Of a stretch of DNA of 48,718 nt, positions 36,912 to 48,718 are shown one piece after another. The position numbers and the translations under genes were made by a program. This stretch comes from a virus (taxonomy: Duplodnaviria; Heunggongvirae; Uroviricota; Caudoviricetes). The notes beneath the pieces were generated by a model that saw nothing but the letters and a program-made list of their open reading frames with translations, was not told the DNA's origin and searched no databases. Location: the IMG/VR virus record IMGVR_UViG_2597489870_000007. The stretch is one strand, 5' to 3'. Positions within the stretch are counted from its first letter, which is position 1; each line of letters opens with the position of its first letter.

Positions 36912-37144
36912 GCTGCACCTCCGAGATGCTTCATGTTTTTTCCGGAGCGAAAGGTTATAAGCGGCATACTGACGCGGTAATTACGGCCCAGCGGTTCACA
37001 AATCACCTTCTGACATTCACGGTCAACCAGGCTAACACGTAGAACATGCCCTGCAGGCGTGGTGTACCACTGCCCAACTGTAGGAATTGATGTTTTTTTA
37101 CGCTGAAATAAACGGTAAATGTTGAGGATCAACGGATTAAGCAT
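36908..37144 (-). CDS. Hypothetical protein (78 aa)
   Basis: ORF-track ORF overlapping both neighbours by a few nucleotides, suggesting translational coupling within the early-right operon. Confidence 0.4.
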   Translation of the reverse strand: MLNPLILNIYRLFQRKKTSIPTVGQWYTTPAGHVLRVSLVDRECQKVICEPLGRNYRVSMPLITFRSGKNMKHLGGAA

Positions 37145-37973
37145 GACGATGCCCTCCGCTGATATTCAGGAGACGGTGAATATGAAAATTAGCCTTATCC
37201 GCCAGACGAATACGTTCAGCCTGCAAGTTAATAAGGGTTTCTACCAGAACCTGATGCGCCTGCGGATCCGAAAGAGTTACCTTGCGCAGAGCACGTAGTG
37301 CAGTTGTTACATAACTGAGTTTATGTAAGTCTTCATCATTCAGACGAGTGAGGGCTGGGACAGTAGCCATGATGGCAGCCTCCTTGATCGGTGAAATACT
37401 TCCACCACCGGAAACGCCAATTTCGCTGGTGGTGAACTGAACGGGGTTGGCGTAACCGGTGATCAAGGAAACCGGCGCATCTTTCGATGCCCCCGCCCAG
37501 CCCACCATAACTTTGATGTGAGCAAATGCGGACGATAAAAAAGACGCTGGCGCGTCATATATCGCCTTGATCAATTCCAGGACGCCAATCCCGGCACCCG
37601 CTTTATAAGGTGCCTGAACAGTGTAACGTCCCGGAATGGCAGAATCAATGTGCTGGTGGTCCTTCACACTCAACAAAATCACGCCTGAATTTCCACAAAG
37701 GACTAAAGCACTCATGCGGGTAGTCTTTGCGAAGATAGATAACGCGCTGTGTTTCTGGTTCCCAACGAATAACATGGACATAAAGCCCTCTTCCGTCACG
37801 AAACCAGCGGTTAAGTTCCCGCACAACTCGCCCCCCACAGTCAGGTAAAGTTCTCTGTGGTTACTTACAGCCAGGTGATTTGGTAATCTGCATTCATGCC
37901 GTAACAACAGGTGTTCAGCGACACTGACCACCAGCTGTTGCGACAAACGGTTATTTGCCGTTAAACTGTTCAT
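37137..37973 (-). CDS. Hypothetical protein (278 aa), early-right operon
   Basis: Long ORF tightly packed between neighbours; no Walker A motif; family not recognised. Confidence 0.5.
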   Translation of the reverse strand: MNSLTANNRLSQQLVVSVAEHLLLRHECRLPNHLAVSNHRELYLTVGGELCGNLTAGFVTEEGFMSMLFVGNQKHSALSIFAKTTRMSALVLCGNSGVILLSVKDHQHIDSAIPGRYTVQAPYKAGAGIGVLELIKAIYDAPASFLSSAFAHIKVMVGWAGASKDAPVSLITGYANPVQFTTSEIGVSGGGSISPIKEAAIMATVPALTRLNDEDLHKLSYVTTALRALRKVTLSDPQAHQVLVETLINLQAERIRLADKANFHIHRLLNISGGHRHA

Positions 37974-38855: not shown

Positions 38856-39530
38856 ATGAAAACAATCCATGACATCCGGCGGTCTAACGCCAGAAAACTG
38901 AGAGATGGTGTTGGCGGGAATTCTTCCTTTGCCACCATGATTGATCGCGAGCCAACCCAGACCAGCAGGTTTATGGGAGATGGTGCTACTAAAAATATCG
39001 GTGACAGCATGGCGCGGCACATCGAAAAATGTTTCGACCTGCCTGTCGGATGGCTTGATCAAGAACACCAGACCACGAACATCACAAAAAAACCTGATGT
39101 TTCAATCACTAACAAACAAATAACGTTAGTCCCTGTCATATCATGGGTACAGGCCGGAGCATGGAAAGAAGTTGGCTATTCTGAGGTTGATTTGAGCACA
39201 GCAGAAACTTACCCCTGCCCTGTACCCTGTGGCGAAATGACTTATATCTTGCGGGTGATTGGTGATTCAATGATTGATGAGTACCGCCCTGGAGACATGA
39301 TTTTTGTTGATCCCGAAGTCCCTGCCTGCCACGGTGACGACGTTATTGCATTGATGCACGATACAGGCGAAACCACCTTCAAGCGATTGATAGAAGATGG
39401 AACACAGCGTTATCTCAAAGCATTAAACCCAAACTGGCCTGAGCCTTACATTAAGATTAACGGTAATTGCTCTATAATTGGTACAGTGATTTTCTCGGGA
39501 AAACCAAGAAGATACACAATAAAGGCCTAA
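38856..39530 (+). CDS. cI: CI-like repressor (HTH plus S24 LexA-type autopeptidase domain)
   Basis: 224-aa ORF with N-terminal HTH and C-terminal S24 features (VIGDSMIDEYRPGDMIFVDPE... later FKRL). Confidence 0.85.
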   Translation: MKTIHDIRRSNARKLRDGVGGNSSFATMIDREPTQTSRFMGDGATKNIGDSMARHIEKCFDLPVGWLDQEHQTTNITKKPDVSITNKQITLVPVISWVQAGAWKEVGYSEVDLSTAETYPCPVPCGEMTYILRVIGDSMIDEYRPGDMIFVDPEVPACHGDDVIALMHDTGETTFKRLIEDGTQRYLKALNPNWPEPYIKINGNCSIIGTVIFSGKPRRYTIKA

Positions 39531-39542
39531 TCAATATTTATG

Positions 39543-39565
39543 AACCTGCTTCGGCAGGTTTTTTT
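39543..39565 (+). terminator. Rho-independent terminator after cI
   Basis: AACCTGC-TTCG-GCAGGTT followed by TTTTT, starting 13 nt after the cI stop. Confidence 0.7.
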
Positions 39566-39569
39566 ATAC

Positions 39570-39597
39570 TTGACAATGTACCCATGAGATACATAAT
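39570..39597 (+). promoter_or_regulatory. PL-like promoter with overlapping OL operator
   Basis: TTGACA (39570..39575), 16-bp spacer, CATAAT (39592..39597); the spacer holds ATGTACCCATGAGATACAT (39576..39594), which shares its half-sites with the OR operator at 38771..38789. Confidence 0.6.
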
Positions 39598-40197
39598 GTA
39601 TCCAAAAGAAACATGAGGCAGGCAAGATTCAAACAAAATTTGGTTGTAACACGGCGTATGGCACATGCGTCGTTAGCGGTCTGGGGACGTTAAAGGGGAC
39701 AATCCACTTCTTGCTCGGGCAAACAAACCAGGTAGCCGGAATGTGCAAGTCAATGATGATGCTGATAAGACGCCTAACCAGCGTGGCGATCCGGTTTGAC
39801 GCCTGGGAAGAGACCAGGGTGCAACGATGAGGGCATTTATAGAGCCGCGACAAAGTGTGGTGCCGTAACTGGCTAAGTGCTCTCAGCGTTGTGGTAATCC
39901 GCGAAATGGCGCGGCGGTAAGTATGGCGGGGTTACTCTTTCCCCGTTGAGGACACCGGATTGTCAGGTTGACCATACGCCTGAGTGACAACCCCACCACA
40001 ACAGCCACTGCTTTGGCGGTACCAGTTTGTACACTTGCTTCCGGCTGGTACCGCTCTTTTTACAAAATAGAGAAGAGCATCACCGGACGACGGGCTCATA
40101 ACCCAATCCATCCGGGCGGCTGCCACCGCAGGTGTTCTTCTCTGTTTTGTGGAGAAACCAACCGACCTTGCAGGGTCGATATGATGAGGAGCAGCAA

Positions 40198-40561
40198 AAT
40201 GGCTAGCGAACGCAGTACTGATGTGCAGGCATTTATCGGGGAGCTGGACGGCGGCGTATTTGAAACCAAAATCGGCGCAGTTCTCAGTGAAGTCGCTTCC
40301 AGTGTGATGAACACGAAAACCAAAGGTAAGGTCTCACTCAACCTGGAAATCGAACCATTTGATGAGAACCGTGTGAAAATCAAACACAAACTCTCATATG
40401 TTCGCCCGACTAACCGCGGGAAAATTTCCGAAGAAGACACCACCGAAACGCCGATGTATGTCAATCGCGGTGGTCGCCTGACTATTCTGCAGGAAGACCA
40501 GGGACAATTACTGACTCTTGCCGGTGAACCTGACGGAAAACTACGCGCAGCAGGTCATTAA
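40198..40561 (+). CDS. Hypothetical protein, YfdP-like (121 aa)
   Basis: ATG at 40198 preceded by GAGGAG; first gene of the PL-side operon; size and position match yfdP of the CPS-53 prophage. Confidence 0.5.
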
Positions 40562-40626: not shown

Positions 40627-41451
40627 ATGTCTCAGAACTTAGACGCAACCGCAATTAATCAAATCCATGCCCTTATTTCTGCTCAGGGTGTTAATGAAAT
40701 TATCAGTAATATTGGTGCCGATGCTGTGGCATTGCCTGAGAATTTCCGCATTCATGATCTGGAAAAATTTAATTTAAATCGCTTCCGTTTCCGTGGTGCG
40801 CTTTCCACTGCCAGCATCGATGACTTTACCCGTTATTCTAAAGATCTTGCAGATGAAGGCACCCGCTGCTTTATCGATGCTGATAATATGCGTGCCGTCA
40901 GTGTACTTAACCTGGGTACTATTGATGAACCAGGTCACGCAGATAACACCGCCACTCTCAAACTGAAAAAGACAGCACCGTTCTCTGCCCTGTTGTCTGT
41001 TAACGGCGAGCGTAACTCCCAGAAGTCACTGGCAGAATGGATTGAAGACTGGGCCGACTACCTTGTGGGCTTTGATGCTAATGGTGACGCTATTCAGGCA
41101 ACAAAAGCGGCTGCGGCAGTCCGTAAAATCACGATTGAAGCAAACCAGACCGCTGATTTTGAAGATAATGACTTCAGCGGCAAACGCTCCCTGATGGAGT
41201 CTGTCGAAGCGAAGACCAAAGACATTATGCCAGTGGCATTTGAATTTAAATGCGTTCCGTTTGAAGGTCTGAAAGAACGTCCGTTTAAATTACGCCTCAG
41301 CATTATCACTGGCGATCGTCCTGTACTGGTTCTGCGCATTATTCAGCTGGAGGCGGTGCAGGAAGAAATGGCTAACGAATTTCGTGATCTGCTTGTTGAG
41401 AAATTCAAGGACAGCAAAGTAGAAACCTTTATTGGTACTTTCACCGCCTGA
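40627..41451 (+). CDS. DUF2303-family protein, YfdQ-like (274 aa)
   Basis: Same length as E. coli YfdQ and same position in a yfdP-yfdQ-yfdR-yfdS-type module. Confidence 0.55.
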
Positions 41452-41578
41452 TTTCATTACTGCAAATGCCCCTGCGGGGGCATTTATGGAAACGTAATTT
41501 ACTCAATAATCGCCGGATGGTGAGGGATTCTTTTTACCAGAATTCAGCGCGGTGCAGCGCATATACGTGGAGAACAAA

Positions 41579-42115
41579 ATGTCATTTATCAAAACTTTTT
41601 CTGGGAAGCATTTTTATTATGACAGGATAAATAAAGACGACATCGATATTAACGATATCGCGGTTTCCCTTTCAAATATCTGTCGCTTTGCCGGTCATCT
41701 TTCGCACTTCTACAGCGTCGCCCAACATGCGGTTCTTTGCAGCCAGCTGGTGCCGCAGGAATTTGCTTTTGAAGCGTTAATGCATGATGCAACAGAAGCG
41801 TATTGCCAGGACATTCCCGCACCACTGAAACGCCTTCTTCCTGACTATAAACGGATGGAAGAAAAAATAGACGCCGTAATCCGTGAGAAATACGGGTTAC
41901 CCCCGGTTATGAGTACACCCGTGAAATATGCCGATCTCATCATGCTGGCAACCGAACGCCGCGATCTCGGGCTTGATGATGGCTCTTTCTGGCCTGTACT
42001 GGAAGGCATCCCGGCAACAGAGATGTTCAACGTGATTCCACTGGCACCGGGCCATGCCTACGGGATGTTTATGGAACGTTTTAACGATTTATCGGAGTTA
42101 CGCAAATGCGCATGA
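41579..42115 (+). CDS. HD-domain phosphohydrolase, YfdR-like
   Basis: ATG at 41579 (RBS GGAGAA); HD motif in ...FEALMHDATEAYCQDIPAPLK; follows the YfdQ-like gene. Confidence 0.65.
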   Translation: MSFIKTFSGKHFYYDRINKDDIDINDIAVSLSNICRFAGHLSHFYSVAQHAVLCSQLVPQEFAFEALMHDATEAYCQDIPAPLKRLLPDYKRMEEKIDAVIREKYGLPPVMSTPVKYADLIMLATERRDLGLDDGSFWPVLEGIPATEMFNVIPLAPGHAYGMFMERFNDLSELRKCA

Positions 42116-43088: not shown

Positions 43089-43282
43089 TGAACAACTTAA
43101 TGACAACTAAACAAGTCGCCGACTTCTGTGGCGTTTCAGTATCGACCGTTCTTCGCTGGAACAGCGTAAACAGGAGAACTGGCCAGAAATACAGGCCTGA
43201 CTTTCCAGATCCTGATATTAAATCCTGCCCAAATAAATGGGCATCACGCAAGATATACAGGTTTGCTGGAGTTATTGAGTGA
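43088..43282 (+). CDS. AlpA-family transcriptional regulator / excisionase-like
   Basis: 64-aa ORF MNNLMTTKQVADFCGVSVSTVLRWNSVNRRTG..., HTH of the AlpA/Xis type, last gene before the integrase-proximal locus. Confidence 0.7.
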   Translation: MNNLMTTKQVADFCGVSVSTVLRWNSVNRRTGQKYRPDFPDPDIKSCPNKWASRKIYRFAGVIE

Positions 43283-43484
43283 TGGGTATTAGCTCATATC
43301 AGAACTAATACCCATCAATGACACAGAGCCAACTACCCACCCTGTGTCAGGGGCTAACTTTTAACACCATAATTCACCGCTAGATAAAAACTGTATTGCA
43401 TTGCACGAGCGGCGCAGCATTATCAGTTAGAGTGTCTTTACCTTGTTAGGCTCCACAGTTCGCACTGTCCAACGCCTGTCACTT

Positions 43485-46400
43485 TCACACGCTGCGCCTT
43501 CGAGAATATTCATTTAATCGCTGATAACGAACATCTTGCTCCAGTTGTGGAGCAGCTTGAACAATTTGAAGCAAGCATTGCCCCAACTCTCGAGGCCCCC
43601 AGTGTTGTTCGGCAATCACGGCATTCAGCAGGGATAGAGCGTCCGCAGGATATCGGCTGCAAATATCTGATTCTAGCAAAAGGCGAACGTCGTAGCTAAG
43701 GTGTTCGAGCGGTTGCAGCCAGTCCTGCACCACTGCCAAAGCCGCCGGAAATTCACCTCGGGCAGCAATCACCATACGAGTCAACGATTCGGATATGCGT
43801 GGGGTGGCCAAGTTGCGGGACTTTGGCCAAACCTGTTGCCAAAATGGCTGGACACGATTTTTCCAATACTCCTCGCGCTGATCGCCCGCACCTTCAAGTG
43901 CCTGGTATAACGCCTGCGCGGCTACCTCCAGACCTTCTTGTGGAAGAGCACTAATTGCCGTTCGGAACTCCTCCACGGTATATCCCTCGGTAGGGCCCAG
44001 AGCTGCATAAGTCAGGAAAATAGCGAATTGCTGCCGGTGCTCGCCAAGATCAGAATAGTGATTGGCGCTCTCCAAAAAATCTGACTTGAAAGCTATCAGC
44101 AACGGTTCATACAGGCGTGGCGACCAGAGGAAGCCTTCCCACACAGCTTTTGCTTCGACGGGATTACTCCAAGCAAACAAGGGCAATAGATACTGTTCGG
44201 TCCAAGGTCGATCTACGCGAAAAAATGCGATCAGCCGCGACCCCAGCAACACCCGACCATGGCGGAATAGCTCTATCTGTACATTACACAATTTGGTGAA
44301 AAGTGTTTTCAATTCAACAGGAAGCAAATCATTGTCATTCGGGTTCTGTTTGAACCATAGGGTGATCAGTGATTGCGTGACATGCCCAATGGGATGATTG
44401 ATCGCCGTAGAAACAGGATCATAGGTCTCAATTCCGTTTCGAATGGTGCTAGACTCTGGGCTTGTTTCTATCATCAGAACCCGACGACAAAGGGCCAGTA
44501 GAATCTCCTCGTGGCAGAGGATGGTCTTCGAAGCCTCCTCCATCCACCAAGTGACAGCGTGGGAAATCTCCTGAAGTACTGCGTCAGGCATGTCAAGCAC
44601 CAACGGTGCGGCGTACCGCCACGAACGCAAAATCATCCCTGGTTCAGCCCAAGTCTGCAGAGCTTCACGCCACCGACCAACAGGCCACACATCATCTTGT
44701 GATAGTTTACGTAACGCATACAGACTGTGAAAAAAGCGCGTACGGCAAACATCACTCCAAGTGTCCTCATAGAAAGGCAGTCTTTCTGGCATAGGCTTTG
44801 CGAGCCATTGCACTAATTCCTGCCACTTACGGGGCGCAATGTCGACATCTATACTCTCCTCGAAGCCTGGATCACCGGTTCCGCTCATCCAGTGAGAGAA
44901 TTCATCACGCTCGTTGGTTGCCAGTTGCCATTTTGGGTATGCTGTGGATATTTCCGTCAAACGTGTAGCCGCAGACTCTCCCAAAACAAGGCCCGCTCCC
45001 CTGAGCTTCGCTAGACACAACCAGACGGAATGAGCCACCAAATAATGCCACCTGTCTGCTTCCAAATTATCCTCGTACATCTCGCGCGGAGGCCCTGCCA
45101 AGATAGCAGTTTCCAGACGCTCTTGTGCAATTCCTGTCAGATGTCGTCCCTGCAAAACAAACAGTCTGAATACCTCTCGCCGAGTATCCGTGGCCCACAA
45201 CCACCATGAACCGTCCTCTAACAACCAATTAACCCACCGCTCAGGTGGTATGCAGTTGTCTTGGCTTGCGGCAAACAGTGCCAGACGTTTGAAGGTGGGA
45301 TATGGCAACTCAAACCAATTCTGAGCAATGCGCGAGGCCTGATCGCTGTCTTTGGCTCGAACGGCTAACCATGAATCCCGAAGTAATTCAATCAGGCTCA
45401 CCCAATCGCGGAACCCCCGGTTCTGCCAGTGCGGAGTGATGGACGGCAAATCCCAATGCGAGCGGTCGTGACGATCGTCGGACTCTCCCAACTCCCGCAA
45501 CAAGTCCAGTGCATCACGCAACAACTGCTGAAAATCTTCCAACAGGTATGGCAAGGACGATTTCCATGACTCGTCAGCAAGGTCGAACAGGGTTGAACGT
45601 ACGTAATCAGCAGTCAGCACCAGCTCCCAATCCACCAATTGCTTGATTCGCAAGGGTTCATCAGTGCTGCTCGAATCGTCTTCACTATAGCGAAACGGCC
45701 GCCTCAACATAACCTTGGGAGAAAGCAACCCGCGTAACTCCAAGCGCAATGTAGTCGTCAAGCCTTCATTCTTTAAGCGGTTTTGCCAACGATACAAATC
45801 CAGGTTCTGCAATGGCGATTTCACACGACCACTAAGCAGAAGCCGCCATAAAGTAGACATAGGTGGACCAGGAATAGCCAGGGGGGAATGCAAGAGAATT
45901 TCATCTAACTCAGAAGTCTTACGCTCCCGCATCAGTGCTGCTAAGCGATCTAGTTCGCTCTCAATCAGAAACATCCAACGGTCGTGTATTTGTCCGCCGC
46001 GTTCAGCAATCCATATGATCAACCTAGGGTCGCCCAGATAACGAACTAGCCAACGGGCTATATGGGACATTACGTCATCCCATTTGCTAGCACTGACACA
46101 TCCAGAAACCAGCGACATCTGCGGGGCCAGCTCATAGGGCGCAGGACGCTGAACCAGACTGAATCGGAGTTTCGGGTCAATTTCGACATGCGGAGATACA
46201 CAAAAGCGTGGCAGATCGCTGTATTTAAATCGTTCGTCCGAGAAAGCTTTCAATAACCAATCCAGCGGCGGTGCAGGATTGAGTTCCGCAAAGCGTTTTG
46301 CTGGTAAACCTGATTTATCTGACAAGGCCCACAACATCCGACCAACGAAATCGTCCTGACGAGTGCTGTCCTGCGGGCGGGCCAGAGCATGTTTGACGAC

Positions 46401-47312
46401 TATAGCCTTTTTGCCCTGTATACCATCTCGATAAGTATCTGCCCAAGCGTGCAACGTTTGATGCAGCACTGAATGATCAGTGGAGCCCGCCGGTACGGTG
46501 TAAAGGATAGGAGTGACCCCTTTGGCCTCCCACTCGATGGCTTTCCGGTGCTCCTGCCCCGGCTCACACTCCCCCAGTGCCCATACTTGTGGTGTGACTT
46601 CACCGAGCCTCCGATCTGCTGCAAGCGCATCCATCATGTAGCGCAGTACCGGGTCGTTGATGCTGTAGCCAACGAAGCAGACCACATAGTTACGAAATAA
46701 CTCACTCACAAAGCGAGCTGCCCAACGCTCAGTGAGATAAGCCAAGCCAAAGTCACCGCTGGTAACAACCAGACGATTCAGGGCAGTATCATCCGCCTTT
46801 TCCGGTAACAGCCCATGCAGGTATACAAGTCCATCCCAGCGGCTGTTTTTTGGAATTGGCAGCATCGGCGCTACATAGGCCTGAAAAGCCTGGCCTGTAC
46901 GTTTAGCTGCCACATGAAAGAGACGGTCAAAGTTGGTAGTGACCAATCGAAGGGCACCCTCGCGGCTACGGGCTAAACGTAACAGCGCCGCCTGAGTATC
47001 AATAGCGCCCCTACGACGGAGCTTTGGCTTAAGGGCTTTTTCCAACGCGCGTCGGACGGCTATACGCTGCCCTGGTAAGCGCCGTTCCAGCAAATCTAAT
47101 GTGCCGTCAAATTGCCCACGCTCGAAAACCTCACGCTCAATTTCTGAAAGTGTTGTTCCGTTCCTCTGGTAAATTAGTTCTACCAACCCTTTGAAACCAG
47201 GTAAACCAGCAGGGTAGGAAATGCCTGCTCCACAGAAGAACACAACGCGCCCTTCCTCGTGCGCCTGCAAAAACTCATCAGGAATATCAGGGCCGTTGGT
47301 AATGAATTGCAT
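43485..47312 (-). CDS. Large SIR2-domain protein (1,275 aa), candidate single-gene antiphage defence (DSR-like)
   Basis: Intact ORF with RBS GGAGGA. N-terminal 260 aa carry SIR2 signatures: VVFFCGAGISYPAGLPGF, TTNFDRL, VYLHGLL, CFVGYSINDP. The remaining 1,000 aa are Leu/Trp-rich with no Walker A motif. Sits between int and xis. Confidence 0.8.
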   Translation of the reverse strand: MQFITNGPDIPDEFLQAHEEGRVVFFCGAGISYPAGLPGFKGLVELIYQRNGTTLSEIEREVFERGQFDGTLDLLERRLPGQRIAVRRALEKALKPKLRRRGAIDTQAALLRLARSREGALRLVTTNFDRLFHVAAKRTGQAFQAYVAPMLPIPKNSRWDGLVYLHGLLPEKADDTALNRLVVTSGDFGLAYLTERWAARFVSELFRNYVVCFVGYSINDPVLRYMMDALAADRRLGEVTPQVWALGECEPGQEHRKAIEWEAKGVTPILYTVPAGSTDHSVLHQTLHAWADTYRDGIQGKKAIVVKHALARPQDSTRQDDFVGRMLWALSDKSGLPAKRFAELNPAPPLDWLLKAFSDERFKYSDLPRFCVSPHVEIDPKLRFSLVQRPAPYELAPQMSLVSGCVSASKWDDVMSHIARWLVRYLGDPRLIIWIAERGGQIHDRWMFLIESELDRLAALMRERKTSELDEILLHSPLAIPGPPMSTLWRLLLSGRVKSPLQNLDLYRWQNRLKNEGLTTTLRLELRGLLSPKVMLRRPFRYSEDDSSSTDEPLRIKQLVDWELVLTADYVRSTLFDLADESWKSSLPYLLEDFQQLLRDALDLLRELGESDDRHDRSHWDLPSITPHWQNRGFRDWVSLIELLRDSWLAVRAKDSDQASRIAQNWFELPYPTFKRLALFAASQDNCIPPERWVNWLLEDGSWWLWATDTRREVFRLFVLQGRHLTGIAQERLETAILAGPPREMYEDNLEADRWHYLVAHSVWLCLAKLRGAGLVLGESAATRLTEISTAYPKWQLATNERDEFSHWMSGTGDPGFEESIDVDIAPRKWQELVQWLAKPMPERLPFYEDTWSDVCRTRFFHSLYALRKLSQDDVWPVGRWREALQTWAEPGMILRSWRYAAPLVLDMPDAVLQEISHAVTWWMEEASKTILCHEEILLALCRRVLMIETSPESSTIRNGIETYDPVSTAINHPIGHVTQSLITLWFKQNPNDNDLLPVELKTLFTKLCNVQIELFRHGRVLLGSRLIAFFRVDRPWTEQYLLPLFAWSNPVEAKAVWEGFLWSPRLYEPLLIAFKSDFLESANHYSDLGEHRQQFAIFLTYAALGPTEGYTVEEFRTAISALPQEGLEVAAQALYQALEGAGDQREEYWKNRVQPFWQQVWPKSRNLATPRISESLTRMVIAARGEFPAALAVVQDWLQPLEHLSYDVRLLLESDICSRYPADALSLLNAVIAEQHWGPRELGQCLLQIVQAAPQLEQDVRYQRLNEYSRRRSV

Positions 47313-47494: not shown

Positions 47495-48718
47495 TCATTT
47501 CGAGCCTGAACGAGTACAAGTAACAATCGATTCAACTCTCTCCCACCATGCCTGGTAGGCTTTACGCTGTTCTTCTAGATAATCACTCTTGTCATAAACT
47601 TGCCATACACCTGGCAGTTTATGACCGAGCATTATTTCAGCAATATGAGGCGCAGTAAGATCAGAAAAGTTTGTTCGTGCTGTTCGTCTCAAATCATGAA
47701 GAGACCAGTGAGGAAATTGATACCCCAAACGCCGCCATGCGTACTGCATTAAATTGTAAGGCAGCGACTGCAATGATGTCCGACCAACTGGTTCCCTGCT
47801 TCCTTCCTTAGTAAAAAGCATATCGGAACCGTTGTTCATAGAGATAACGTATTTTATAAGCTCTTCAACCGGTTCAATAATGGGCCGCTTTAGCGGTTCG
47901 CCTGTTATATCCCCTGTCTTATGTCGTTCTGGTGGTACAGTCCATATTTTATTAATGAAATCAAAATCGTCCACCTTGGCAGTAATTAGCTCTGAACTAC
48001 GGCAACCAAAATGCAGCAATAGTTTAATGAAGGCCCGGTATTTAGGAACCATTCGAGAACCATCGATCGCAGCATAAAGGATTTTAATTTCATCATGTGT
48101 CAGAAACCGTTTCTTCTGACCTTTACGGATATCCATATCTTTACCCGTGATATCCGACAGCGGGCGAGTTTCAATGAGCTTTCTCTTATACGCCCAGACA
48201 TGGGCCTGCTTTGCGTTAATTAGCAATCGGTCTGCTATTGCTGGAGTCTTAGTGCTAAGAGGCTCCAGGACTTCTAACCAATCATGCAATGTAGCTGCAT
48301 CGTGAGGGATATTCCCGATTTTAGAGAACAGGTGCAGCTCAAACGAGCGGAGTATCTGTTCAGAACCTTTTTTATTTTTTACACAATATGCTTCATACCA
48401 AGCACGGATCACAGATTCTACCGTCATGGCTTCAGTAGCTTTACGTTTTTCTGCCAGCTTGACCAATCGTGGATTGCGGTTTGACTCGAGTTCACCACGA
48501 AGACGGATAACTTCTTCTCTGGCCTCTTTTAGTCCAGTTGCCGGGTAAGTTCCGATATCAAGACGCTCACCTTTCCCCGCCCACTGATAACGATATTGGA
48601 ACACTACGCGACCTTTCGGTGATACTCTAACAGACAGGCCATCACGATCGGATTTAACCAAAACCTTATCACGTTCCTTTCCAACGACTGAACGCAACCA
48701 CGCATCAGACAGCGCCAT
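47495..48718 (-). CDS. int: Tyrosine integrase (P4-like family)
   Basis: 407-aa ORF starting MALSDAWLRSVVGKERDKV with catalytic-region motifs (HDLRRT, MLGHKLPGVWQVYDK); start codon is the last three bases of the window, so att lies outside it. Confidence 0.9.
   Translation of the reverse strand: MALSDAWLRSVVGKERDKVLVKSDRDGLSVRVSPKGRVVFQYRYQWAGKGERLDIGTYPATGLKEAREEVIRLRGELESNRNPRLVKLAEKRKATEAMTVESVIRAWYEAYCVKNKKGSEQILRSFELHLFSKIGNIPHDAATLHDWLEVLEPLSTKTPAIADRLLINAKQAHVWAYKRKLIETRPLSDITGKDMDIRKGQKKRFLTHDEIKILYAAIDGSRMVPKYRAFIKLLLHFGCRSSELITAKVDDFDFINKIWTVPPERHKTGDITGEPLKRPIIEPVEELIKYVISMNNGSDMLFTKEGSREPVGRTSLQSLPYNLMQYAWRRLGYQFPHWSLHDLRRTARTNFSDLTAPHIAEIMLGHKLPGVWQVYDKSDYLEEQRKAYQAWWERVESIVTCTRSGSK

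Follow-up and report, generated by a model that had tools for sequence, protein, structure and literature searches.

An RNA-rich PL leader with an intrinsic terminator ahead of yfdP in a lambdoid prophage lacking N, and its probable relation to sRNA-17

The DNA analyzed here is the whole 48,718-nucleotide (nt) stretch of the virus record IMGVR_UViG_2597489870_000007 (Caudoviricetes), referred to below as the window. It is an N-less lambdoid prophage of the mEp460, cdtI, SfV and Shiga toxin 2c (Stx2c) phage group. The element in question is the leader of about 595 nt that lies between the predicted start of the early leftward promoter PL, near position 39604, and the first early-left gene, yfdP, at 40199. 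It is likely that this PL leader carries several RNA modules together with an intrinsic terminator, and that it yields a small RNA (sRNA) of the type published as sRNA-17. The elements of the leader are the following.

39650 to 39822, plus strand: core A, a structured RNA of 173 nt with four helices (model R2, 152 bits, single copy in the window)
39817 to 39900, plus strand: HP-1, a long hairpin enclosing two small ones in a three-way junction (-34.3 kcal/mol, z-score -3.1)
39888 to 40060, plus strand: equivalent of sRNA-17, from the base of HP-1 to the U tract of the terminator (173 nt here, 193 nt in RS218 and mEp460)
39896 to 39993, plus strand: swap cassette, in two versions that cannot be aligned, the window type and the mEp460 type (42 distinct leaders aligned)
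40016 to 40061, plus strand: Rho-independent terminator with a 10-bp perfect stem, a 19-nt loop and UCUUUUU
40062 to 40150, plus strand: HP-2, an interrupted stem of about 22 bp enclosing two hairpins (-57.6 kcal/mol, z-score -5.4)
40151 to 40198, plus strand: translation-initiation region of yfdP (alignment A2, pair counts)

The leader is a chain of separate RNA modules rather than a single element. The segment 39530-40200 is 100% identical in enterotoxigenic E. coli H10407 and in other E. coli genomes, and the entire leader folds better than shuffled sequence (z = -4.6). Comparison of about 110 distinct upstream regions placed junctions at 39623, 39896, 39994 and 40014, the first of them being the mosaic junction with other immunity types. 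The segment 39640-39895 is about 99% identical among all E. coli leader types that have it, and 39994-40198 is inherited together with yfdP across the regions compared. The interval between repressor and terminator is quite different in other phages, where it holds orf33 (SfV) or, in another type, an open reading frame (ORF) for an excisionase-like helix-turn-helix protein. The covariance-model search called for by the preliminary description of this region was run against Rfam 15. No family matched the leader at gathering thresholds, and at E<=10 only noise was obtained, on the cI terminator.

The preliminary description had noted a perfect 10-bp stem followed by a T tract, and had offered a tL-type terminator, an HK022 put-type antiterminator and a structured regulatory RNA as readings of it. 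Its coordinates proved exact: pattern location puts the arms GCGGTACCAG at 40016-40025 and CTGGTACCGC at 40045-40054, the 19-nt loop at 40026-40044 and TCTTTTT at 40055-40061. The hairpin folds at -21.2 kcal/mol (z = -4.2), and the fold lengthens the stem to 13 bp. On the plus strand of the 48.7-kb window, two perfect hairpins reach 10 bp or more and run into a T-rich tail, compared with 0.05 expected from 200 first-order Markov simulations. In a set of yfdP homologues, made up of one genome per species and viral contigs, a GC hairpin followed by T5-8 has been kept at the equivalent site upstream of yfdP in 18 of 18 loci. These loci come from about 12 genera, including Escherichia, Mangrovibacter, Atlantibacter, Enterobacter, Leclercia, Kosakonia, Phytobacter, Scandinavium, Pseudocitrobacter and Providencia. 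The stems differ between them (for example GGCGGCGTC/GACGCCGC, GCGGCACC/GGTGCCGC and GGTGGC/GCCACC), and loop length varies from short to about 45 nt. The compensatory stem changes in homologous prophages, together with the RNA 3' end considered below, bear out the tL-type reading, and the identification of the hairpin as a Rho-independent terminator is well supported.

Some further observations concern this terminator and its neighbor. The loop is 30-45 nt long in several genera (L009, L020, L025, L027, L031, L032 and L033), where GAGG-like bases and, after them, the conserved motif GA(A/T)GATAATGTTCTG are found in it. The motif, which could be a mini-ORF or a binding site, is absent from the short loop of the window. 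An RfaH ops site was considered on account of the likeness of GGCGGTACCAG to GGCGGTAGCGTG; this candidate was dropped, since across genera the remainder of the arm covaries as part of a hairpin. Directly after yfdQ, at 41454-41480, there is a further terminator-like hairpin, AAATGCCCC-TGCG-GGGGCATTT, for which the annotation of phage Ayreon gives a terminator. Transcription of the early-left operon thus meets more than one stop signal.

An RNA from this locus has been published. sRNA-17 is a 193-nt RNA defined by 5' and 3' rapid amplification of cDNA ends (RACE) and by Northern blot in E. coli K1 RS218, where it belongs to a mEp460-like prophage (Sun et al. 2020, Front Microbiol 11:574833; PMC7719688). 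The supplementary alignment of that paper prints a sequence starting AAAAGAGCGGTACCAG... or AAAAGAGCGGTACCAGCCGGAAGC..., which is the reverse complement of the hairpin with its T tract. The strand of the RNA was derived from distances on mEp460. The end of the repressor gene lies 1151 nt from the start of yfdQ, and the 'intergenic region' of the paper is 1152 nt (PMC7719688). The fourth T of the tract lies 567 nt from yfdQ, both on mEp460 and in the window, and this is precisely the difference between the published positions 4535226 and 4534659. These matching distances place sRNA-17 on the same strand as yfdP and yfdQ, with the RNA ending on the U tract. Thus re-mapped, the RACE 3' end is the fourth U, equivalent to position 40060 of the window, and provides the stable RNA end that the terminator reading called for. 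The 5' end (GUUGUGGUGAAUG...) corresponds to 39888.

The published RNA and the segment in the window therefore share the locus, the hairpin and U tract as the 3' end, and GTTGTGGT at 39888 as the 5' end, while the body of the RNA, which is the cassette, differs. The flanks are also the same, with the repressor upstream and yfdP and yfdQ downstream. The leader is 88% identical to that of mEp460 overall and about 99% identical outside the cassette. Genome CP016546, which has the leader type of the window, is included in the published alignment and is also among the 99.9% matches; the paper enters genomes of this type under 'degenerative sRNA-17' (PMC7719688). The paper treats sRNA-17 as a stand-alone trans-acting sRNA. 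It is silent on PL, on the repressor and on terminator function, and makes no mention of the position in cis before yfdP, of core A or of HP-2. As a terminator, the hairpin has thus been partly published already, as the 3' end of sRNA-17, while the core A and HP-2 families are unannotated.

The 5' end of the RNA falls in a region with the features of a tRNA slot. Position 39888 lies in the 3' arm of HP-1 and is the first base of the stem that closes the swap cassette, in which GTTGTGGT (RNA form GUUGUGGU, 39888-95) pairs with ACCACAAC (39995-40002) and is followed by AGCCA. In mEp460 this closing stem is a perfect 10 bp. The cassette itself gives no fold signal (z -0.05). From its sequence, the closing stem resembles the acceptor stem of a tRNA, with a tail close to CCA. 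Three phages, phiV10, Klebsiella phi13.3 and SPN1S, have in succession core A, a hairpin homologous to HP-1, tRNA-Arg(UCU), a short spacer and a terminator GGCGG..CCGCC-CUUUUUACAG. HP-1 is about 95% identical in phiV10, where the tRNA starts straight after it; the tRNA-Arg begins directly after ...CGUU of the 3' arm, and its first base in phiV10 aligns with 39891. A yfdP leader of Phytobacter has the order hairpin, tRNA, terminator, HP-2 and yfdP. The cassette lies at the site where related phages carry their tRNA gene. ARAGORN finds no tRNA or transfer-messenger RNA in the window. The likeness of HP-1 to HP-2 is architectural and without detectable homology (8.3 bits, E 7.5 with the HP-2 model). 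A reading of the HP hairpins as miniature inverted-repeat transposable elements was rejected because their arms covary rather than keep a fixed inverted repeat. In phiV10 (DQ126339) the tRNA-Arg(UCU), at 2742-2818, is unannotated; it is followed by the terminator at 2862-2897 and lies on the opposite strand to ORF PhiV10p04 (2748-2999), a call that is likely to be wrong.

A processed 5' end would be consistent with this arrangement. The scan for promoters found no sigma-70 promoter upstream of 39888. Processing is favored over a separate promoter because of the acceptor-like closing stem at the 5' end and because no promoter is detectable. We infer that 39888 is a processing product and not a primary start, generated by RNase P or by RNase III within HP-1, and that the acceptor-like stem GUUGUGG/CCACAAC with AGCCA is a candidate substrate of RNase P.

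The promoter that would supply the transcript lies immediately upstream, at the end of an immunity module defined by its ymfK-type repressor gene. The features on either side of the leader are as follows.

38856 to 39530, plus strand: cI-like repressor gene of the LexA family, ymfK type (ORF list; Pfam Peptidase_S24, 1.5e-26; RefSeq annotation of an identical genome)
39542 to 39568, plus strand: terminator of the repressor transcript (hairpin 39542-61; 8-bp stem and T run, from the terminator scan)
39570 to 39597, plus strand: PL, a strong sigma-70 promoter, TTGACA-16-CATAAT (11 of 12 sigma-70 consensus positions matched)
40199 to 40561, plus strand: yfdP, the first early-left gene (ORF list and RefSeq annotation; phrog_204; no Pfam match)
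40627 to 41451, plus strand: yfdQ, downstream of yfdP
41552 to 42115, plus strand: yfdR, downstream of yfdQ

The terminator of the repressor transcript is annotated as such in phages Ayreon and SfV. Within the spacer of the promoter is the 20-bp operator OL, ATGTACCCATGAGATACATA at 39576-95, with the pattern ATGTACC-N6-GATACATA. Two related copies (repeat family D1) are located in the intergenic region between cI and cro, at 38771-90 and 38804-23. The presence of this repeat both in the promoter spacer and between cI and cro identifies the promoter as a genuine repressor-controlled PL/OL.

The following sequence of events can be proposed. Transcription would start near 39604 at PL, and core A would be made first. 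HP-1 and the variable cassette in the tRNA slot would follow, and the polymerase would then reach the terminator. Most transcripts would stop at the hairpin, and their promoter-distal part, which begins at the base of HP-1 and extends as far as the U tract, would accumulate as the stable sRNA-17 equivalent of about 173 nt. In the lysogen, transcription coming from the repressor gene or arising within the leader would end at 40060 and keep yfdPQR off. With most transcripts stopping at the hairpin, yfdP, yfdQ, yfdR and the remaining early-left operon would be insulated in the lysogen and attenuated after induction. Upon induction PL would fire, core A and the slot RNA would be made, and a fraction of the polymerases would continue into HP-2 and yfdP, or all of them if some antitermination mechanism acts. 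In the read-through RNA, HP-2, the Shine-Dalgarno (SD)-like GGAG behind it and a small hairpin would probably control the processing and/or translation of yfdP. We infer these roles of core A and HP-2, and also that termination at the hairpin is incomplete or is overcome during lytic growth. The published deletion mutant is in agreement with this scheme. When a resistance cassette took the place of the sRNA-17 segment, yfdP rose from 0.49 to 47 reads (about 95-fold) and yfdR from 0 to 8.5 (PMC7719688), which is what would be expected on loss of a terminator ahead of both genes.

Several points weigh against this interpretation. The rise of yfdP in the mutant may stem from the promoter of the inserted chloramphenicol cassette (PMC7719688). 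The RACE ends belong to a leader type with a different cassette and not to the strain of the window. If 39888 were a primary start, the processing step would be wrong, and the authors describe sRNA-17 as an independent ArcA-regulated sRNA with its own promoter (PMC7719688). At 19 nt, the loop is long if the intrinsic terminator is to be efficient. Finally, the yfdP leaders of the SfV type, of the L037 type and of several genera lack core A, which therefore cannot be a general requirement for yfdP expression.

The best of the alternatives, possible although doubtful in our judgment, follows the published view: sRNA-17 would be an independent trans-acting sRNA gene with an ArcA-repressed promoter, the hairpin its terminator and yfdP and yfdR its targets. 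An electrophoretic mobility-shift assay showed ArcA on the upstream fragment, the levels of sRNA-17 depend on oxygen, a Northern signal is seen in the lysogen, where PL should be repressed, and partial complementation was reported by quantitative reverse-transcription PCR (PMC7719688). However, no sigma-70 promoter for such a gene was found upstream of 39888. The stretch before this position is the 3' arm of a conserved hairpin that abuts the 5' end of a tRNA in relatives, and the end itself falls on the first base of a stem that resembles an acceptor stem and has AGCCA behind it, which is the shape of an RNase P substrate. Furthermore, polar read-through is preferred as the simpler explanation of the rise of yfdP and yfdR, since both genes are immediately downstream in cis. 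A terminated and probably processed leader tail is therefore the reading retained here.

The first module of the leader, core A, has a distribution much wider than this prophage group. In a MAFFT alignment of 30 sequences, 97.8% of the cells of its four helices are paired, 10 pairs (69 cells) have changed on both sides, and none of 500 shuffles was as good; the pairing falls to 28-48% when the partners are slid. An alternative long-range pairing, GCACAU/AUGUGC, involves invariant bases only and gives no covariation signal either way. The junction sequence GGTAGCCGGAATGTGCAAG at 39731-49 is invariant, and this 19-mer occurs in at least 120 viral contigs of 29 clusters. Core A is absent from Rfam, and a full-text literature search with its invariant strings was without result. 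By blastn, homologues with 77-79% identity, always unannotated, were found in P1, P7, RCS47, D6 and SJ46, in the epsilon15-like phages phiV10, SPN1S and Tyrion, in Klebsiella and Salmonella phages and in mEp390. Among 5426 complete E. coli genomes, 1833 (34%) have core A, with 554 copies on plasmids, and again it is never annotated. Three contexts can be distinguished: in lambdoid phages it lies 175-235 nt past the end of a cI-like gene, in epsilon15-like phages upstream of tRNA-Arg, and in P1-like phages directly after a tRNA with the anticodon CAU. The P1 copy is located between trnI and ban, inside the C1-controlled ban operon (3511-3690 in AF234172). In Kosakonia (L023) a repeat CCGA(G/A)CCTGATGTGGT(G/T)AAAAG(A/C)CAGGCA occurs at about 1605-1640 and about 2200, preceding core A and, later, an HP-type hairpin; it also precedes core A in several viral contigs.

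These properties raise the question of antitermination. Core A might represent a new class of cis-acting antiterminator doing the job of put, in which case only PL transcripts that carry it would pass the hairpin and those without it would stop and give sRNA-17. We consider this improbable. It is true that lambdoid leaders of at least 14 sequence clusters, with differing repressors, have core A 46 nt past the start of PL and always upstream of the terminator, and that core A also lies within the C1-repressed ban operon of P1. Its many invariant unpaired nucleotides are expected of an RNA that binds a conserved partner, and the sRNA-17 transcripts do lack core A and end at the terminator. However, model R2 finds a single copy, with no second one in the PR operon or in the rest of the window; SfV-type and other yfdP leaders have the terminator without core A; the P1 copy immediately precedes ban and is not followed by a terminator; and core A has, in some contigs, its own terminator straight behind it. 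The last two contexts are better fitted by a free-standing stable RNA, and the adjacency of core A to tRNA genes suggests co-processing into a discrete RNA.

Antitermination by an HK022-type put RNA, which would allow RNA polymerase to pass the hairpin and later terminators, has very little probability. The put RNA is about 70 nt long, with two stems and the conserved blocks GAACGGC, GTCGG and GGCGGG.TCAGGA.GA..GGCAAT, and its read-through depends on the beta' zinc-binding domain of RNA polymerase. HK022 and the window do have in common the lack of N and a conserved structured RNA soon after PL, and no N gene stands at the usual place. A paper on the related N-less lambdoid LLS, which has homologues of yfdP, yfdQ and yfdR in its early-left operon, suggests put-like antitermination. 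There is also a superficial likeness between ACGGCG-N10-GCGTCG at 39651-39672 and positions 9-14 and 29-35 of putL, which was rejected as a plain 9-bp hairpin that covaries independently. A covariance model (R1) was built from eight put RNAs: HK022 putL and putR, HK639, phiEt88, CobraSix, S9-5, UPF_BP1 and PdC23. With filters off and E<=10 it has no match in 39599-40197, and this proposal of the preliminary description is thereby contradicted. The invariant put positions GGCGGG.TCAGGA.GA..GGCAAT are not present in the leader, and blastn with putL did not reach the phages of this group. The PR operon holds no second copy by either the put model or that of core A, as paired sites after PL and PR would show, and core A with its 173 nt and four helices differs from put in size and fold. 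The best put-model match in the window, at 37879-37971 on the minus strand, is non-significant (11.6 bits, E 0.13) and probably a chance match; in the PR operon it immediately follows ymfL, at the place expected of a putR or nutR.

The absence of an N-like gene, as first described, is confirmed for the leader. No Arg-rich N-like protein was found as the first gene of PL, which is yfdP, and the sole basic mini-ORF, 26 amino acids at 39613-39693, is not conserved: it starts in the immunity-specific part, and its mEp460 version is interrupted by an in-frame TAA. No boxB-type hairpin was recognized in the leader, where no dedicated nut model was run, and UGCUCU(U) strings are restricted to the 3' arms of HP-1 and HP-2.

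The last structured module, HP-2, accompanies yfdP in all enterobacterial genera examined. In 16 sequences from different genera 97.4% of its cells are paired, 12 pairs have changed on both sides, and none of 500 shuffles was as good; the value falls to 38-51% when the partners are slid. Model R3 scores 107.9 bits on the plus strand and 32.9 on the minus strand, and finds no second HP-2 in the PR operon or in the rest of the window. Between the U tract and the ATG, the 16 sequences have in common the long stem, an inner hairpin with the conserved loop ACGGGCUCAUAACCCAAUCC and a second inner hairpin of variable size. The first inner hairpin of the window, CGGGCTCATAACCC (RNA form CGGGCUCAUAACCC, 40091-40104), is identical in 14 of 14 nt to the anticodon arm of E. 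coli initiator tRNA-fMet, with three G-C pairs and the loop CUCAUAA (GGG-CUCAUAA-CCC). The initiator tRNA sequence was checked against the annotated tRNA-Met genes, which are present in four copies. By a rough estimate, the chance of such a match to any E. coli tRNA in a 600-nt leader is below 0.01. The CAU with its flanking G-C pairs recurs in most, but not all, members of the HP-2 family. On sequence grounds this arm may mimic a tRNA functionally, or it may be what is left of a tRNA gene.

Downstream of HP-2, a near-invariant SD-like GGAGAAAC (GGAG) is located at 40151-58, 47 nt past the fMet-arm hairpin. It is followed by a small hairpin, CGACCttgcaGGGTCG at 40163-78, which covaries from CGACC/GGGUCG to GGCGG/GCCGCC across genera, and by the SD sequence of yfdP itself, GAGGAG at 40186-91. 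With core A and HP-2, two separate covarying modules flank the terminator hairpin, and in this respect the structured regulatory RNA envisaged at first is not only supported but wider than had been proposed. Weaker copies found by model R3 are located on the sense strand of the ban operon of P1 (39.9, 32.8 and 17.7 bits), and more are found in D6 and in other contigs. In AF234172 these HP-type hairpins lie at 1550-1644, 2215-2322 and 2491-2581; two of them underlie the minus-strand ORF calls plp and upl, and like core A they are unannotated.

A protein-coding function of the leader on either strand, as would follow from the hypothetical proteins annotated at this site in Ayreon, mEp460, cdtI and SfV and from the match of phrog_3651 to the minus-strand ORF 39935-40126 (2e-36), has next to no likelihood, as indel lengths are not multiples of three, the hairpin inserts are variable, and the open frames vary in strand and length among genera. 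This minus-strand ORF overlies the terminator and an RNA helix that covaries on the plus strand, with compensatory base-pair changes and with G-U pairs on that strand only; phrog_3651 is therefore judged to be a family of miscalled ORFs. The leader ORFs have no match in Pfam, and PGAP annotated nothing between ymfK and yfdP in a genome with 100% identity. All the tests run are consistent with the leader being untranslated, as initially stated.

It is useful to compare the leader with known systems. Like the window, lambda has a repressor-controlled leftward early promoter after cI, a long structured untranslated leader with a long hairpin just before the ribosome-binding site of the first gene, and intrinsic terminators within the early-left operon. 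Lambda differs in having the N gene, preceded by nutL and the RNase III hairpin, whereas the window has no N and no recognized nut site. In addition, the terminator of the window stands before the first gene, unlike tL1 of lambda, in a leader of about 595 nt with separate conserved RNA modules. The C4 RNA of P1 and P7 and the CI RNA of P4 are phage leader RNAs matured by RNase P. They resemble the RNA of the window as small regulatory RNAs from the leader of an early operon, with an acceptor-like stem plus CCA and an end adjacent to a terminator; there is no sequence similarity, and processing in the window is proposed only. Core A and the HP hairpins adjoin tRNA genes in phages of the P1-like and epsilon15-like kinds and share transcripts with them. 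The T4 species 1 and 2 RNAs are likewise stable RNAs of unknown function co-transcribed with a phage tRNA cluster; their sequences differ from those of core A and the HP hairpins, and the tRNA slot of the window contains a non-tRNA cassette. The PR side of the window is built alike, with IsrK and a C4-type RNA in the early-right operon, each with a terminal terminator. In Rfam these two are found side by side at 37425-37613 on the minus strand (C4 antisense RNA 82 bits, isrK 64 bits). They underlie a 278-amino-acid ORF, 37137-37973, called 'immunity region' in phage records, which is probably spurious over the RNA genes.

Many lambdoid prophages of E. coli, Shigella and Salmonella (Stx2c-, cytolethal distending toxin- and serotype-converting) lack N. 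The present locus argues against the use of HK022 put in these N-less phages and offers instead a terminator before the first gene and two RNA modules. The virulence-linked sRNA-17 can be re-read as the terminated, probably processed tail of a PL leader, and its 'targets' yfdP and yfdR as the genes downstream of the terminator. Phage P1 and one third of the complete E. coli genomes are shown to carry an RNA family that has gone unannotated. The 'hypothetical proteins' plp and upl of P1, p04 of phiV10 and phrog_3651 seem to be wrong calls that overlie RNA elements or a tRNA without annotation.

A more speculative extension, to which we give only tentative credence, is that core A and the HP hairpins are two undescribed RNA families of phage early operons, common to lambdoid PL leaders, the P1 ban operon and epsilon15-like phages, linked to tRNA genes and binding a conserved host machine or mimicking tRNA. 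Core A might then act in trans or in cis and bind RNA polymerase or a tRNA-handling enzyme. The fMet-arm mimic of HP-2, next to the SD-like GGAG, might recruit or block the P site of the 30S subunit; alternatively, the arm might bind MetRS or TilS, or serve as a decoy for an anticodon nuclease such as VapC. If true, such families would provide a new form of early control for N-less lambdoid phages.

Elsewhere in the window, further perfect hairpins of at least 10 bp are found at 26424-26468, 43280-43317 and 47591-47625. The first of these, with a T-rich tail on either strand, is a possible bidirectional terminator. At the prophage's end, an ORF of 1275 amino acids (43485-47312, minus strand) has an N-terminus, GAGISYPAGLPGF..., that looks SIR2-type, and from its sequence it may be a defence gene.

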